A DNA stretch of 64,000 nucleotides from Patescibacteria group bacterium (GTDB lineage: Bacteria > Patescibacteriota > Minisyncoccia > Phycocordibacterales > SIBU01): assembly GCA_040390045.1 (NCBI GenBank), contig JAZJZC010000005.1:3360-67359 (forward strand). Direction: 5' to 3'. A program made the translations under genes and the position numbers. This document shows, piece after piece, positions 13,834-26,942 of this stretch. How positions within the stretch are numbered: the first letter of the stretch is position 1; every line of letters begins with the position of its first letter. The notes under the pieces are model-generated. The model saw only the letters and a list, made by a program, of their open reading frames with translations. It searched no databases and was not told the DNA's origin.

Positions 13834-14781
13834 ATGGAAATTCTTAGAGAATTTAAGGCTCTGGGCAAGCATGATGTCGGGATTGCGGGAGGGAAAGGAG
13901 CATCACTTGGTGAAATGACACAGGCGGGAATTCCGGTGCCACCTGGGTTTGTGTTGCTCTCGAGTGCGTTTGAAAGATTTATTGAAGAAACGGATCTCAA
14001 TGTTGAGATTGATGCGATTTTGCATAAAGTAGATCACAAAGAAATTCACACAGTGGATCGAGCGTCGGAAGAAATTCAGGCTCTGATTCTTGCTGCGAAA
14101 ATGCCGAAGGATATTGAAGCGGAAATTGAAAAATATTTTAAAAAATTAGGAGCGACATTTGTGGCGGTGCGTTCAAGTGCTACAGCGGAAGATTCAGCTT
14201 CGGCGGCGTGGGCAGGACAACTAGATAGTTTTCTCAATACCACCGAAAAAACTTTACTGGAAAATGTAAAGCGCTGTTGGGCCTCGCTTTTTACACCTCG
14301 GGCAATTTTTTATCGATTTGAAAAAGATTTGCATAAAACCAAAATTTCCGTGGCCGTGGTGGTTCAAAAAATGGTGGAATCCGAAATTTCCGGCATCGCT
14401 TTTTCGGTCCATCCGGTGACGGAAGATCGCAATCAACTCATTATCGAAGGAGGATTGGGCCTTGGCGAGGCGATTGTTTCTGGACAGATTACTCCCGATA
14501 GTTATGTCGTCGAAAAAGTCCCGCTAAAAATCCTCGATATTAATGTTTCAACTCAAGAGCGTGGCTTGTTCAAAAAGCTTGGTGGCGGTAACGAGTGGCG
14601 AGACATCTCTACACTTGAAGGTGAGAAACAAAAATTAACCGAAGTTCAAATTCTCGAGCTGTCCGAGCTTATCATTCACATTGAAAATCATTACGGTTTT
14701 CCCTGTGACATCGAATGGGCGTTCGCCGAAGGAAAATTTTACATTGTTCAAAGTCGCCCGATTACAACGCTTAAAAATTAG
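13834..14781 (+). CDS. standalone pyruvate-phosphate-dikinase/PEP-synthase N-terminal ATP-grasp (PPDK_N) nucleotide-binding domain protein
   Basis: GGKGASLGEM, VAVRSSATAEDSASAAWAGQ and HYGFPCDIEWAFAEGKFYIVQSRP match the PpsA/RPH N-terminal ATP-binding domain. The 315-aa ORF ends with a stop and carries no His or PEP-binding domains. Confidence 0.8.
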   Translation: MEILREFKALGKHDVGIAGGKGASLGEMTQAGIPVPPGFVLLSSAFERFIEETDLNVEIDAILHKVDHKEIHTVDRASEEIQALILAAKMPKDIEAEIEKYFKKLGATFVAVRSSATAEDSASAAWAGQLDSFLNTTEKTLLENVKRCWASLFTPRAIFYRFEKDLHKTKISVAVVVQKMVESEISGIAFSVHPVTEDRNQLIIEGGLGLGEAIVSGQITPDSYVVEKVPLKILDINVSTQERGLFKKLGGGNEWRDISTLEGEKQKLTEVQILELSELIIHIENHYGFPCDIEWAFAEGKFYIVQSRPITTLKN

Positions 14782-14845
14782 GTTGGTTGTTGTACTTCTC
14801 GAACTATGCTTTAATTGAGGCCTAATTTAATATGATATCAAAAAT

Positions 14846-16105
14846 ATGAACTACGATGTAAAAGACCTTGGCCTCGCGTCAAAAGGAAAGTTGAGAATTG
14901 AGTGGGCAGAACAAGACATGCCGGTGTTGCGGCAAATTCGCAGACGATTTAAGAAGGAACAACCGTTCAAGGGAATAAAGTTGGCGGCCTGCCTTCACGT
15001 CACCACCGAAACTGCCAATCTTGCCATTACCCTTAAAGAAGGCGGCGCGGAAGTTTTCTTGTGCGCATCGAATCCGCTTTCAACACAGGATGATGTGGCG
15101 GCATCACTGGTTAAAGATTTTGGTATCGCAACCTACGCGATCAAGGGCGAAGATAGTCAGACCTATTTTAAACATATCAACGCGGTACTCGACGCCAAGC
15201 CATCTCTCACCATGGACGATGGTGCGGATCTCGTTTCTGAACTTCACAAAAATCGCACCAAGCAAATTAAAGATATTGTCTGTGGCACTGAAGAGACAAC
15301 AACTGGCGTGATTCGGTTGAAATCCTTGGCCAGCGCTGGAAAATTAAAATTTCCAATTCTTGCGGTCAATGAAGCCATGACCAAACATTTTTTTGATAAT
15401 CGTTACGGAACAGGGCAGAGCACTATGGACGGAATTATTCGCGCAACCAATCGTCTTGTTGCCGGTTCTGTTTTTGTGGTTGCAGGATACGGCTGGTGTG
15501 GCCGAGGTCTAGCGAGCCGAGCGCATGGTTTGGGAGCGCATGTCATCGTGACTGAAATTGATCCAGTCAAAGCACTTGAGGCAGTTATGGATGGCTACCA
15601 AGTAATGCCAATGCATGAAGCGGTAGCTCAAGCCGATTTTATTTGTACGGTCACCGGAAATAAATCAGTCATCGGAGAAAAAGATTTTGCGGTGATGAAA
15701 GATGGTTGCATCATTTCCAACTCAGGACACTTTGACGTTGAAATTGATCTCAAAGCTCTCGCTAAACTTTCAACAAAGAGACGAATGATTCGTGATTTCG
15801 TGGAAGAATTTACCCTCAAGGGAGGAAAAAGAATTTATGTTTTAGGTGAAGGACGCCTTATCAATTTGGCAGCGGCAGAAGGTCACCCTGCGTCTGTTAT
15901 GGATATGAGTTTTGCCAATCAGGCGCTTGGTGCGGAATACATGCTTAAAAATGTTGGAACATTTAAACCTCAGGTCTATGTTATTCCTGAAGTGGTTGAT
16001 CGAGAAATTGCAGCGCTTAAACTGGCCTCACTCGGGGTTTCTGTTGATGTTTTGACCGCTGATCAGAAAAAATATTTGGGAAGTTGGGAAGAGGGAACGG
16101 CTTAG
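14846..16105 (+). CDS. ahcY: S-adenosyl-L-homocysteine hydrolase
   Basis: 419 aa; contains the [13 protein letters not shown]-binding fold and GYGWCGRG. Confidence 0.9.
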
Positions 16106-16182
16106 TGCGAAGCGCACTTGATGGAATTAGGAATTACGAATTAAGAATTAGGAATGGGAAAAATTAAAATAAGAATTTAAGA

Positions 16183-24955: not shown

Positions 24956-24971
24956 TTGTTATTTTAGTTTT

Positions 24972-25859
24972 ATGAATATTAACGAAATGCCACCTAAGCA
25001 AGAGAGTCAGGAAATTATTTCCAAGATACAATTACATTTTTTCAGACACGGTGAACAGTTTAAGGATCCAGCAAAATCTGACCCTGAATACGAACTTTCT
25101 GCGGCTGGACGAGAGCAGGGAATGAATAAAGCGAAGTCAATTGAGGAAAGACCGAACCTCCGGCAGACCATGGCTTTTGGGAGCCCGAGAGCACGGTCAC
25201 AACAGACTGCCTCTTTTGCGATGGCTGGCCAGGCGCTCGATAGTGTTGTTGGTGACGAATCGCTGAAAGAACTTAAGGCAAAACTGGATGGAGATATTTC
25301 CTACGGATCTAAGGTAATGAGTGATCCTCGTCTCGATTTTACTATGGATAAGGATACCCCATTTGGAGCAAAAGCATTTGAAGCTTTTTCAAAGAAAGAA
25401 TATATGAAGTTTTTAGTTAATTCAAGTGATGCATTGGCGAAGGAAGTAAAAGACTCGAAAGGGTCAACATACTCAAGACAAGCTGGAGATGTGGCTCAAG
25501 TAGTAAAGAAATATCTTTCAGTCTCTAGCCGATGGAAGGAACTTGTCCAAAGTGGTAAATATCAAGATCCCAAACTCGAGCGATTTTTAGGTTCTCATGG
25601 TGGTGTAACCGAGTCTTTTTTGTTTAAGGTGATTGAAAAAACTAAAGGAATAGAGGAGCGTGACAGACTTCTAGCTCTTATTCCAAACATTTTTGATTTT
25701 ACGGAAGGTTTTGATGTCGAACTTGTAACCACTGACAGAAATAGCGAACCAGCAGTTAGGATTATTTACAAGAAGGAATTGCCTGGCGGCAAAAAGTTTA
25801 AATTTAACGAAGTTGTTCCGATTGAAGTTATTGAGGAAATTGTAAAAGAAGGAAAATAA
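24972..25859 (+). CDS. histidine phosphatase superfamily (phosphoglycerate-mutase-like) protein
   Basis: N-terminal FFRHGE (RHG motif) and the downstream LGSHGG second catalytic His motif. Confidence 0.55.
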   Translation: MNINEMPPKQESQEIISKIQLHFFRHGEQFKDPAKSDPEYELSAAGREQGMNKAKSIEERPNLRQTMAFGSPRARSQQTASFAMAGQALDSVVGDESLKELKAKLDGDISYGSKVMSDPRLDFTMDKDTPFGAKAFEAFSKKEYMKFLVNSSDALAKEVKDSKGSTYSRQAGDVAQVVKKYLSVSSRWKELVQSGKYQDPKLERFLGSHGGVTESFLFKVIEKTKGIEERDRLLALIPNIFDFTEGFDVELVTTDRNSEPAVRIIYKKELPGGKKFKFNEVVPIEVIEEIVKEGK

Positions 25860-25865
25860 AATTTT

Positions 25866-26942
25866 GTGGAACTTTCTGATTTCAAAAAACACACTGATTG
25901 GGTAAAAGTTTGGTCTTCTAGAGGAAGTCTGGCTTTCGATTCTCATTTTGGAGATCAGTGTACAAAGCAAAGTGATATTTCAAGTAAGCCATTTTTTGCT
26001 AAGACGGTGACGTTTTACAAAAATGGCATTTCTCATGGGTGGGTACGTGGTGAAGATAAAGATGATTTAGGTGACAGACTAAGCTCTTTGGCGAGGGAAG
26101 ATAGTACGTTTGTAGAAAAAATATCAAATGGTTTGATTTCTCATACAGACAGGGTAGCTTCTTTTATAGACTCTCAAAGTGTAAAAAATTTTGGACTTGT
26201 CGAATTTAATGAATTTTGGAAGGTAGTCCAAGATTATTTTTTATACCATGTGAGTGTTAAGTATATTGTTGATCGTCTTTCGATTGAAGATCTAGATAAA
26301 TTTTTACCAACACTTGAAAAGGCAAGGTTGTATTGCGAACCCGCATATAGAAATATCGAAAATTATATAGAACTTCTCGCTGAGAGAGTGGTCACGGAAA
26401 CTTCATACACCAAAGAAATGATTTTGGCCCTAACCAAGGAAGAATTCAGATCGTATTTTCAAGGTAATTTATTGCCGGATAAAGCCCAGCTAAAAAATCG
26501 GCATGAAAGTTCTGTACTTATTTTCGATTCCAAAGAGAGTCAGGTTTTTACTGGTATGGCTGTAGATGAAATTGAAAAAATCGTTTCATCTTTTTTGGCA
26601 CCCGATCTTATAAAAGGTCAAGTTGCTTTTGTGGGGAAGGTTATTGGTAAAGTAAAAGTGATCTCTAATCCATTGAAGGACGGGGGAAAGTTTGACGATG
26701 GAGATATCTTAGTAACCGGGATGACTCGACCAGAGTTTTTACCGCTCATGAAAAAAGCTGCAGCGTTTGTAACTGATGCGGGTGGAATCCTTTCTCATGT
26801 TGCTATTACGGCGCGTGAGTTGAAAAAGCCCTGTGTTATTAGTACCCAAGTTGCTAGCAAGGTTTTAAAGGATGGGGATTTAGTAGAGGTAGATGCCAAT
26901 TTAGGGATTGTAAAGATTTTAAAGAGAAACGGAGACAAATAA
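25866..26942 (+). CDS. PEP-utilizing-enzyme mobile domain protein, paralog 4 (GTG start)
   Basis: C-terminus DAGGILSHVAITARELKKPCVIST. Confidence 0.75.
   Translation: MELSDFKKHTDWVKVWSSRGSLAFDSHFGDQCTKQSDISSKPFFAKTVTFYKNGISHGWVRGEDKDDLGDRLSSLAREDSTFVEKISNGLISHTDRVASFIDSQSVKNFGLVEFNEFWKVVQDYFLYHVSVKYIVDRLSIEDLDKFLPTLEKARLYCEPAYRNIENYIELLAERVVTETSYTKEMILALTKEEFRSYFQGNLLPDKAQLKNRHESSVLIFDSKESQVFTGMAVDEIEKIVSSFLAPDLIKGQVAFVGKVIGKVKVISNPLKDGGKFDDGDILVTGMTRPEFLPLMKKAAAFVTDAGGILSHVAITARELKKPCVISTQVASKVLKDGDLVEVDANLGIVKILKRNGDK

Follow-up and report, generated by a model that had tools for sequence, protein, structure and literature searches.

A probable split dikinase of the rifampin phosphotransferase type, with one ATP-grasp subunit and four swivel-domain carriers, in a patescibacterial genome

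The analysis presented here suggested that a 64,000-nucleotide stretch of DNA from an ultra-small bacterium of the Patescibacteria (the window) is likely to encode a split, hub-and-spoke small-molecule "water dikinase" of the rifampin phosphotransferase (RPH) type. The predicted system consists of one engine, a stand-alone ATP-grasp protein (G), and four proteins (N-S modules) that each carry an N-terminal domain (N-domain) and a C-terminal phosphohistidine swivel. G would bind ATP and pass its beta,gamma-pyrophosphoryl group in trans to the swivel catalytic His of any one of the N-S proteins, and the gamma-phosphate would be lost to water, yielding AMP and Pi. Each swivel would then swing back to its own N-domain, which resembles the RPH rifampin (RIF)-binding domain, and phosphorylate the acceptor held there. 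One engine is proposed to serve several acceptor specificities because the N-domains are very different and the swivels are nearly alike. Domain identities, folds, conservation, gene linkage, and natural fusions are observed directly, and the transfer in trans, the dikinase stoichiometry, and any substrates are inferred from them.

The ATP-grasp subunit and four predicted carriers

The six ORFs assigned to the cluster by a sequence-only reading all exist at the coordinates used here. The gene for G (positions 13834 to 14781, plus strand) encodes 315 aa, and PPDK_N (PF01326; E 2.3e-96) was its sole Pfam match, covering profile positions 3 to 313 of 328 and including the motifs GGKG, RSSATAEDS, and CDIEW. 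This agreed with the earlier description of an ATP-grasp domain that ends with a stop: the gene ends in TAG, 64 nt of intergenic DNA separate it from an AdoHcy hydrolase gene, and no remnant lies downstream. The possibility that G is the truncated remnant of a longer gene was checked and did not hold up, as stand-alone orthologs of 315 to 320 aa were present in at least eight loci, and G orthologs were 53 to 94% identical across phyla in a set of 80 related CPR/DPANN loci with an ATP-grasp ortholog. A separate comparison put ortholog identity in the 80 loci at 61 to 80%. An identical G gene with the same neighbors was also found in an independent Logan assembly. When all six frames of the window were searched, G was the only PPDK_N protein and the four N-S ORFs were the only ones bearing a swivel. 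G is predicted to supply the swivel His residues with pyrophosphoryl groups from ATP. Among PDB sequences, G matched PEP synthase (PEPS) 8a8e (6e-72), RPH 5hv6 (3e-63), and 9goj_A (1e-52). The last of these, deposited under the name "Phosphoenolpyruvate synthase," is a 387-aa chain that may be the structure of HpeI.

The four N-S ORFs each contained one PF00391 domain at the C terminus, as had been proposed. Module 1 (19475 to 20779, plus strand; E 1e-26) has an N-domain of ~328 aa and catalytic His390 in a GGITSH motif, and module 2 (22513 to 23895, plus strand; E 2e-24) has an N-domain of ~356 aa, in the same superclass, and a GGLSCH motif. Module 3 (23897 to 24955, plus strand; E 1e-23), which starts 1 nt past the module 2 stop, has an N-domain of ~247 aa and catalytic His309, and module 4 (25866 to 26942, plus strand; E 3e-22) has a GTG start, an N-domain of ~250 aa, and a GGILSH motif. 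The division of the N-domains into two subfamilies was therefore upheld, with a long type of about 328 to 356 aa in modules 1 and 2 and a short type of about 247 aa in modules 3 and 4. The motifs quoted in the sequence-only reading were all present, but two minor details needed correction: modules 3 and 4 read GGILSH, with L rather than T or S at the second variable position, and module 3 has GRAVIIL in place of the GxVKVV pattern.

Swivels of the window paralogs were 55 to 69% identical to each other, but their N-domains were only 21 to 33% identical; in the case of modules 3 and 4, the values were 69% and 33%. N-domains from 84 loci fell into about 78 clusters. The catalytic His was 100% conserved in 130 aligned modules (49 short type and 81 long type). 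Short modules also had a near-invariant Arg (R153, 98%) in an "ARLYxEP" helix, and the alignment of 81 long-type modules contained no N-domain residue conserved across subfamilies at 85% or more. As the sequence-only reading had noted, the N-domains lack a recognizable motif; they had no match in Pfam, NCBIfam, or PDB sequence searches. Their only structural relative was the rifampin-binding domain of the RPH resistance enzyme. In the N-S proteins, a fold like that of the RIF-binding domain precedes a C-terminal swivel with a T/SxxGGxxxH catalytic His, and this order matches RPH and HpeH, not PEPS. A search of the window proteins with PADLOC protein models gave nothing significant, with one marginal match (PD-T4-2_B, E 7e-4) to module 1.

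G lies 4.7 kb upstream of module 1, with AdoHcy hydrolase, PfkB, and G6PD genes between them. Terminator-like hairpins in the window suggested at least three transcription units, and G is probably in a unit other than that of the carriers. Modules 2, 3, and 4 probably share a unit with the phosphatase-like gene described below, and the last gene of this unit is probably that of a riboflavin kinase (26966 to 27361, plus strand; PF01687, E 6e-27), which starts after a 23-nt gap from module 4 and is followed by a terminator-like hairpin at 27346 to 27381. Homologs of this kinase adjoin modules in three other loci (L034, L017, and L074); its membership in the system is uncertain.

One engine and many modules in related genomes

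A single G was found in every one of the 80 related loci, including one (L085) in which it is interrupted by a stop. No module was fused to G in 21 loci, one module was fused in 36, and 2 to 7 modules were fused in 19. Multi-module fusions had 2 modules in 10 loci, 3 modules in 6 loci, and 4, 5, or 7 modules in 1 locus each. Pfam searches identified one PPDK_N and 7 swivels in a 3376-aa ORF (L031), one and 5 in L011, and one and 3 in L064, and the internal modules of such fusions included relatives of window modules 1, 3, and 4. These natural fusions supported the idea that one ATP-grasp is shared by several carriers. Fused G-N-S relatives were 660 to 880 aa, and split and fused states interleaved among near-identical G proteins (L062 versus L058, 90%).

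Modules that lack an ATP-grasp usually followed G in tandem, with up to 8 modules per G; of the 50 loci in which the sequence extended 5 kb or more downstream, 30 had two or more. The expected co-occurrence of a stand-alone PPDK_N gene with swivel paralogs was also seen in related genomes: L002 had four N-S genes and G, L006 had G and four N-S genes, and L021 had G and six. The L021 array includes a module 2 ortholog behind the stand-alone G (214 bits) and a module 4 ortholog directly behind it; a further module 4 ortholog lies in the L014 array. In some relatives (L004 and L007), an N-S gene was present with no G within 10 kb. This counts against the shared-engine reading, as do the 4.7-kb distance and separate transcription units in the window and the lack of residues conserved across the long-type N-domain subfamilies.

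Taken together, these findings bear on whether the window genes are decayed fragments (pseudogenes) of ppsA/PEP synthase or RPH, or unrelated swivel regulators that never meet an ATP-grasp. NCBI names these proteins "PEP/pyruvate-binding domain-containing protein" and "PEP-utilizing enzyme," PEP synthase models are their best NCBIfam matches, and G does not adjoin the modules in the window. However, all ORFs are intact, each belongs to a large conserved family, and the same parts are fused in frame in dozens of genomes. All scores were far below the PEPS cutoffs (329 bits versus 598), and the PEP-utilizers_C TIM barrel (PF02896) was not found in the listed neighbors of four loci with gene tables or in the window ORFs that were scanned, a set that excludes 41871 to 42410 and, between 46 and 64 kb, about 23 ORFs of 150 aa or longer. 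The N-domains precede the swivel and have a fold other than that of the PEP/pyruvate TIM barrel. Thus, none of the refuting conditions set out in the sequence-only reading was borne out, and its interpretation was supported. Conservation and fusions already contradict decay or unrelatedness, and we regard it as extremely improbable.

A second alternative is that the modules do not act in parallel and instead form a serial His-to-His phosphorelay, or work together to poly-phosphorylate a single large substrate (glycan, lipid, or protein), like glucan water dikinase. Up to seven modules per polypeptide would suit processive or cooperative work, the RIF-binding domain contains subdomains that resemble HPr and EIIA (PMC4844700), and the module 3 family has an invariant H127. 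In contrast, short-type modules as a group do not conserve this candidate second His, each module retains a complete N-domain and swivel and can stand as a separate protein, and module number and order vary freely among close relatives. The very high conservation of the swivel also suits docking to a shared donor, not docking between modules, so we consider serial or joint action quite unlikely.

The phosphatase-like partner and possible roles

The sequence-only reading had placed two histidine-phosphatase-superfamily genes in the cluster, and one of them proved to be a recurrent partner. HP2 (24972 to 25859, plus strand; 295 aa) is an accessory protein with the features of a branch 1 histidine phosphatase, namely, the RHG motif, a second Arg, an acid, a distal His, and a PF00300 score above the cutoff (24.4 versus 21.7 bits). 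R25, H26, and R75 were invariant in the HP2 family, and E100 and H209 were at least 90% conserved. The nearest PDB sequences were PhoE (1ebb/1h2e) and PGM-like 3eoz. In 12 other loci, HP2 homologs lay directly beside G or N-S genes, and stop/start overlaps were frequent; HP2-related L044-type proteins were present in 4 further loci (hhalign, 96.9%). In contrast, the "SixA-like" gene (18784 to 19368, minus strand) scored 17.6 bits, below the PF00300 cutoff of 21.7, and has VPHG in place of RHG. None of 86 related loci contained a homolog of it, and it did not resemble the genuine minus-strand His_Phos_1 neighbor of L009. Its membership in the system is not supported. HP2, which is probably co-transcribed, would most likely be a phosphatase or mutase for the phosphorylated products; it might instead reset the carriers by discharging their phospho-His, as had been proposed, but this seems less likely.

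The modules might also be a battery of RPH-like inactivating kinases directed against antibiotics or xenobiotics of hosts or neighbors, that is, a resistome and not a metabolic or salvage system. The structural kinship of the N-domains to a domain of a resistance enzyme fits this idea, as do their extreme diversity, variable copy number, and tandem arrays, which suit an arms-race family, and rph-like matches in CPR genomes have appeared in tallies of resistance genes (PMC8651080). However, the modules form deep and stable ortholog groups (42 to 66% identity, in many CPR phyla and in DPANN archaea), not a pattern of patchy recent exchange, and archaea are not targets of rifamycin-type drugs. 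In the module 3 family, most of the conserved N-domain residues carry a charge (H127, K131, R153, E157, E164, E192, and R211), which suits polar or anionic metabolites over hydrophobic antibiotics, and a tightly coupled phosphatase partner would reverse an inactivating phosphorylation. Furthermore, the NCBIfam RPH models were not passed (286 bits versus 999). A resistance role thus seems doubtful, although less so than serial or joint action.

Gene neighborhoods of the relatives gave weak and inconsistent hints about substrates. Under the preferred reading, a shared engine with parallel acceptor-specific carriers, our best guess is that the system captures or activates several small metabolites for these auxotrophic symbionts. 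More tentatively, it could be a "phosphoryl distribution hub" common to CPR bacteria and DPANN archaea, in which a single conserved ATP-grasp charges up to eight or more phospho-His modules (separate or joined in polyproteins as long as 3376 aa), each module phosphorylates its own scavenged metabolite, and the products pass to dedicated enzymes of the histidine phosphatase fold. If this were true, the hub would be a modular salvage and activation platform that replaces many conventional kinases in minimal cells and that gene transfer has carried across the two domains.

Comparison with known phosphotransfer systems

For both the ATP-grasp (E 6e-72) and the swivel (profile E 3e-35), sequence similarity is highest to PEP synthase and PPDK, which use the His-swivel phosphorelay that is predicted for the window system. 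In these enzymes, the swivel is central and is followed by a C-terminal PEP/pyruvate TIM barrel (PF02896), whereas here an N-domain of another fold precedes the swivel. PEP synthase itself (TIGR01418/PRK06464) was rejected, with scores of 329 and about 100 bits against the cutoff of 598 and no PF02896 in the scanned window ORFs or the listed neighbors of the four loci.

RPH (PDB 5HV1/5FBS), for which the mechanism and an Arg666/Glu667/Lys670 phosphate site have been described (PMC4844700), has an ATP-grasp, a helical substrate-binding domain, and a C-terminal swivel His in the same order as the fused G-N-S relatives. However, it is a single chain with one module, whereas the window encodes separate proteins; identity is 17 to 19%, and the RIF-binding domain of RPH is roughly 450 aa, compared to 247 to 356 aa for the window N-domains. 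RPH as defined by NF041857/NF000283 (a single ~865-aa chain with RIF-contact motifs) was also rejected; the cutoff was 999 bits, G reached 286, and the modules reached 54 to 68. Nothing in the analysis pointed to rifamycin as a substrate.

PTS Enzyme I/HPr is a functional analogy only, as one phosphoryl donor there feeds many substrate-specific modules. The PTS donor is PEP, while the donor here would be ATP via the ATP-grasp, with a branching that we infer, and there is no HPr, EIIA, EIIB, EIIC, or membrane component.

The most similar systems are HpeHI, CreHI, and PpsAB (Rhodococcus; Corynebacterium; Thauera/Aromatoleum), which are split homologues of RPH. Biochemical work has proven them to be two-component dikinases in which the ATP-grasp is a separate subunit; HpeHI produces AMP, and its H581Q variant is dead (PMC12167813). 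Their hallmark, a separate ATP-grasp-only polypeptide, is present in G, and both arrangements pair an ATP-grasp subunit (HpeI, PpsB) with a RIF-binding-like/swivel subunit (HpeH, PpsA). By analogy, the window system may share their dikinase chemistry (ATP to AMP, Pi, and a phospho-product). The carriers were not assigned to the PpsA/HpeH/CreH group, whose members are about 45% identical pairwise. PRK08296 matched only the last 105 to 130 residues of the modules (mainly the swivel) at 60 to 94 bits, far below cutoffs of 578 to 730, and the N-domains had no detectable similarity to these models outside the swivel. The window carriers are also smaller (350 to 460 aa versus about 600 aa), and genuine PEP synthases, rather than RPH or 9goj_A, are nearest to the window ATP-grasp and swivel. 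HpeHI, CreHI, and PpsAB work on phenolics and lie in catabolic clusters; unlike them, the window system has CPR/DPANN symbiont hosts and a histidine-phosphatase-fold partner.

The sequence-only reading knew of no such split arrangement described as a system, and this needs correction. Splitting itself is not new, given PpsAB, CreHI, and HpeHI (PMC12167813), but the one-to-many layout appears to be, and our literature search found no published account of the present system. The known systems are 1:1 adjacent gene pairs, whereas the window has one G, 4.7 kb off, for four carriers (up to eight elsewhere), which points to a one-to-many phosphorylation machine that currently goes under the wrong label of PEP synthase.

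One ATP-grasp protein and four swivel modules

The protein encoded at 13834-14781 on the plus strand (315 aa, referred to here as G) was a complete PPDK_N ATP-grasp. It matched PF01326 with an E value of 2.3e-96 over profile positions 3 to 313 of 328, and no other domain was matched in Pfam. The PDB sequences that best matched G were PEP synthase (8a8e, 6e-72), the ATP-grasp of rifampin phosphotransferase (RPH; 5hv6, 3e-63), and 9goj_A (1e-52), a 387-aa chain deposited as "Phosphoenolpyruvate synthase." The G gene ended in a TAG stop, the next gene began 64 nt on, and an identical gene with the same neighbors was present in an independent Logan assembly. 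A six-frame scan of the 64 kb indicated that the only ATP-grasp and swivel ORFs in the window were G and the four paralogs at 19475-20779, 22513-23895, 23897-24955, and 25866-26942 (paralogs 1 to 4, respectively).

Each of the four paralogs was closed by one PF00391 swivel (E values of 1e-26 to 3e-22) with an intact catalytic His motif. The motifs quoted in the sequence-only reading were all present, with just two trivial differences (paralogs 3 and 4 read GGILSH, and paralog 3 reads GRAVIIL), and its division of the N-terminal domains (N-domains) into two types was borne out: paralogs 1 and 2 carried a long type and paralogs 3 and 4 a short type. The regions before the swivels had no Pfam, NCBIfam, or PDB sequence match. 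That reading had considered that these regions might be ordinary TIM barrels; they were instead compact relatives of the RIF-binding domain, and the order of N-domain followed by swivel (hereafter, an N-S module) was that of RPH and HpeH. When the families of modules 3 and 1 were compared profile to profile, only the swivel was aligned. Thus, the putative homology of the long and short N-domains would have a structural basis, namely the match of both to RPH, and not a basis in sequence.

The conserved N-domain residues of the paralog 3 family were largely charged (H127, K131, R153, E157, E164, E192, and R211), and three of them were also kept in a set of 49 short-type modules that spanned all subfamilies (R153 in 98%, E192 in 90%, and R211 in 94%). 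The substrate domain of RPH holds the transferred phosphate via Arg666, Glu667, and Lys670, which are kept even in distant clades (PMC4844700). Judging by linear offset in the profile alignment, R153, which lies in the "ARLYxEP" helix, may be the positional counterpart of Arg666.

The swivels and N-domains differed greatly in conservation. In pairwise comparisons of the window paralogs, the swivels were 55-69% identical and the N-domains were 21-33% identical; the swivel consensus sequences of the paralog 1 and paralog 3 families were 52% identical. The catalytic His and the TDxGGxxxHxAIxxRE...KPC motif were 86-100% conserved in 130 aligned modules (49 short type and 81 long type). The N-domains of 187 modules, on the other hand, were split into about 78 clusters at a threshold of E<1e-20, and 20 clusters remained at E<1e-5. 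As for G, conservation was unusually high, with a median identity between relatives of 68% (range, 53-94%). This combination of a conserved engine and conserved docking domains with hypervariable acceptor domains is the pattern expected under a hub-and-spoke mechanism, in which phosphate would pass from ATP to the swivel His and then to an acceptor bound in the N-domain. The roughly 78 clusters would also give biocatalysis a ready-made collection of new kinase specificities toward small molecules.

Each paralog belonged to a large family that was well conserved and widely distributed. The best 120 of thousands of matches to paralog 3 were 37-59% identical over the full length, and the best 120 matches to paralog 1 were 42-69% identical. 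Many CPR phyla and DPANN archaea were the sources of both families; on one archaeal contig (L007), archaeal ribosomal protein genes adjoined the modules.

A side observation concerned PF02350 (UDP-GlcNAc 2-epimerase), matches to which overlapped the swivels in three related loci (L031, at residues 3293-3346, L011, and L064) and in the proteins P0066 and P0094. No individual stretch was significant, and the L031 protein exceeded the whole-protein cutoff. The similarity is probably spurious, and it could mislead automatic annotation.

Layout of the system in related loci

When one genome per GTDB species was scanned with the G protein, 80 loci were recovered with identities of 61-80%; they came from many phyla of CPR and many lineages of DPANN. 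We then mapped the domains of every ORF in each locus. Every locus contained exactly one ATP-grasp. It stood alone in 21 loci; in 36 it was joined to a single N-S module, giving the architecture of RPH. Fusions to two modules were found in 10 loci, fusions to three in 6, and fusions to four, five, and seven in one locus each; a contig end cut the gene in 3 loci. Pfam independently identified one PPDK_N and seven PEP-utilizers domains in a single L031 ORF (3376 aa), as well as 1+5 and 1+3 arrangements in L011 and L064, respectively. In L085, the ATP-grasp of a five-module polyprotein (9986-16192) was broken by one stop, located between 10684 and 10688, which reflects either an error in sequencing or a recent disruption.

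Additional N-S genes without an ATP-grasp usually lay in tandem behind G, and at least two modules were present in 30 of the 50 loci having at least 5 kb downstream. The context of paralog 3 homologs was similar: in L002, four N-S genes preceded the gene for a 329-aa PPDK_N protein; in L006, the gene for a 324-aa PPDK_N protein came ahead of four N-S genes; and one contig had at least eight consecutive N-S genes.

Modules of the window type were also found inside polyproteins fused to an ATP-grasp. Internal modules resembled paralog 1 in L064 (147 bits), paralog 3 in L075, and paralog 4 in L011 and L070. These fusions served as Rosetta-stone evidence for one ATP-grasp acting with several N-S modules. 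Moreover, the split and fused states interleaved among near-identical G sequences. The stand-alone G of L062 and the fused G of L058 were 90% identical, and the nearest neighbor was fused for 14 of the 26 G proteins scored as stand-alone, a few of which may be truncated by contig ends. It therefore appears from these sequences that the two forms are functionally interchangeable. The core proposal of the sequence-only reading, an ATP-grasp shared by several modules, survived all three of the refutation tests set out with it. We rejected the idea that the genes are fragmented ppsA pseudogenes, which was contradicted by the conservation and fusion data.

The distribution of the system was centered on CPR and DPANN, and the ATP-grasp sequences did not separate into bacterial and archaeal groups. 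Archaeal-labeled and bacterial-labeled G proteins had a median identity of 68% and a maximum of 90% (L008-L087), the same as the similarity within groups, which implies inter-domain gene transfer or mis-binning. Several G-bearing contigs were labeled Gammaproteobacteria, Acidobacteria, or Methanosarcinales.

Gene setting and histidine-phosphatase partners

The window lies on a 70,342-bp contig from a Patescibacteria (CPR) metagenome-assembled genome, and almost all genes from 9323 to 31627 were on the plus strand. Around the system were genes for a Liv-type ABC transporter, AdoHcy hydrolase, a PfkB kinase, G6PD, 6PGD, a cyclase/arylformamidase-like protein, riboflavin kinase (RibK), and an EamA transporter; pyrimidine-biosynthesis and F-ATPase genes were located elsewhere in the window. 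A 789-aa ORF at 29258-31627 (+) had two Dala_Dala_lig_N and two Dala_Dala_lig_C stretches and looks like a double D-Ala-D-Ala ligase fused in tandem.

Terminator-like hairpins were found after G6PD and a minus-strand ORF (18732-18758), after 6PGD (21680-21711), between the cyclase-like gene and paralog 2 (22461-22496, a 16-pair palindrome with G-T pairs allowed that was scored as a terminator on both strands), and after RibK (27346-27381). Paralog 2, paralog 3, a histidine-phosphatase-superfamily gene (HP2), paralog 4, and RibK were separated by gaps of 1, 16, 6, and 23 nt, in that order. The hairpin positions and short gaps suggest three transcription units: one with the ABC transporter, G, AdoHcy hydrolase, PfkB, and G6PD genes; one with paralog 1 and 6PGD; and one running from paralog 2 through paralog 3, HP2, and paralog 4 to RibK (26966-27361), which presumably closes that operon. 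The window holds a dispersed version of an array that is tight elsewhere, as in L021 (Taylorbacteria), where G and six modules form a tight array.

Some neighbors recurred. AdoHcy hydrolase genes (E values of about 1e-149) were near G in the window (14846-17205) and in the archaeal-labeled loci L060 (5732-8005) and L064 (6714-7970), and a PfkB-family kinase gene was beside them in the window and, with a weak match (E value of 4.6e-05), in L060. This proximity points to block transfer or to a functional connection with adenosine/AMP metabolism. RibK homologs were beside dikinase modules in L034 (5260-5601), L017 (11679-12038), and L074 (15140-15568). AdoHcy hydrolase/PfkB, RibK, Liv-type ABC, and TP_methylase neighbors each recurred in just 2-4 loci, too few to assign substrates.

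In an unbiased search for recurrent neighbors, the sole consistent neighbors of the system were histidine-phosphatase-like families. HP2 (24972-25859, +) was a branch-1 member of the superfamily above the Pfam cutoff. Its catalytic residues (R25, H26, R75, E100, and H209) were conserved, and its nearest PDB sequences were PhoE and PGM-like proteins. The HP2 family was small, and the source names of its members indicated an origin in CPR. Its members directly adjoined ATP-grasp or N-S genes in 12 related loci, with stop/start overlaps in several (L010, L018, and L081). Three other adjacent families were found: one in four loci (L044 type) that was homologous to HP2 (hhalign, 96.9%), one on the minus strand in three loci (L009 type) that was a clear His_Phos_1 member (E value of 1.7e-12), and one in six loci (L075 type) that is a probable member, given a weak match to HP2 (hhalign, 75% over 43 columns). 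The phosphatase fold was therefore a real, recurrent, and itself diversified partner. Its diversification alongside the N-domains argues that HP2-type phosphatases probably act on module-specific products rather than only on uniform phospho-His. A conserved protein of about 250 aa immediately upstream of G in four archaeal-labeled loci (L045, L047, L060, and L064) had no Pfam match and no detectable relation to the HP2 family.

The sequence-only reading had placed two phosphatase genes in the cluster. HP2 held up as a recurrent partner; the other gene, at 18784-19368 (-), had no homolog in related loci. Its orphan product gave a sub-threshold His_Phos_1 match and had VPHG in place of RHG, and we rejected its assignment as SixA-like. 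No other gene in this 22-kb plus-strand block lay on the minus strand, and the gene had its own strong terminator-like hairpin (18732-18758) and shared divergent promoter-like sites (19416-19467) with paralog 1. Thus, it is probably a real gene, though not demonstrably part of the system.

Predicted function and known split dikinases

Homology and the natural fusions provided good support for the predicted phosphotransfer path from ATP through the swivel His to an N-domain acceptor, and we consider the hub-and-spoke mechanism as a whole likely. Hints to the acceptors were weak: charged conserved pocket residues and, in the window, neighbors from nucleoside, pentose, and flavin metabolism. We favor phosphorylation of several small metabolites, for capture or activation, by auxotrophic symbionts, which echoes the scavenging role proposed for HpeHI (PMC12167813). 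The main rival is an RPH-like detoxification battery. A PADLOC scan gave no match to known defense systems. In one paper, rph-like matches in CPR genomes are counted as resistance genes (PMC8651080). Our confidence in any specific biological role is low.

The family was found widely and with strong conservation in CPR and DPANN, the two great radiations of ultra-small symbionts, and it occupied about 5-11 kb per locus in these small-genome lineages, which implies that it is an important piece of symbiont physiology. Public annotation names these genes "PEP-utilizing enzyme," "pyruvate, water dikinase," or "PEP/pyruvate-binding," and the NCBI names in the window were "PEP/pyruvate-binding domain-containing protein" and "PEP-utilizing enzyme." Such names can lead to false calls of gluconeogenesis or PEP synthase when metabolism is reconstructed from CPR and DPANN genomes, as well as false rifampin-resistance calls.

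The suggestion in the sequence-only reading that such a split system was undescribed was not correct because three two-component RPH homologs have been characterized: PpsAB (phenylphosphate synthase), CreHI, and HpeHI (PMC12167813). In these systems, a separate ATP-grasp subunit and a subunit with a RIF-binding-like domain plus swivel are both required, AMP is a product, and a His variant is inactive (PMC12167813). The system described here is of this known kind, an RPH-like split small-molecule dikinase. The split is common to both, but the gene ratio differs, with one ATP-grasp gene to many modules here; we found no description of a one-to-many arrangement in the open-access literature. The new features are the one-to-many stoichiometry, the natural polyproteins with one PPDK_N and several swivel modules, the histidine-phosphatase-fold partner, and the CPR/DPANN-centered distribution. 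The one-to-many arrangement, which culminates in the 1+7 polyproteins, widens the swivel-domain paradigm: where a single donor site was paired with a single acceptor site, there are now many acceptors per donor.
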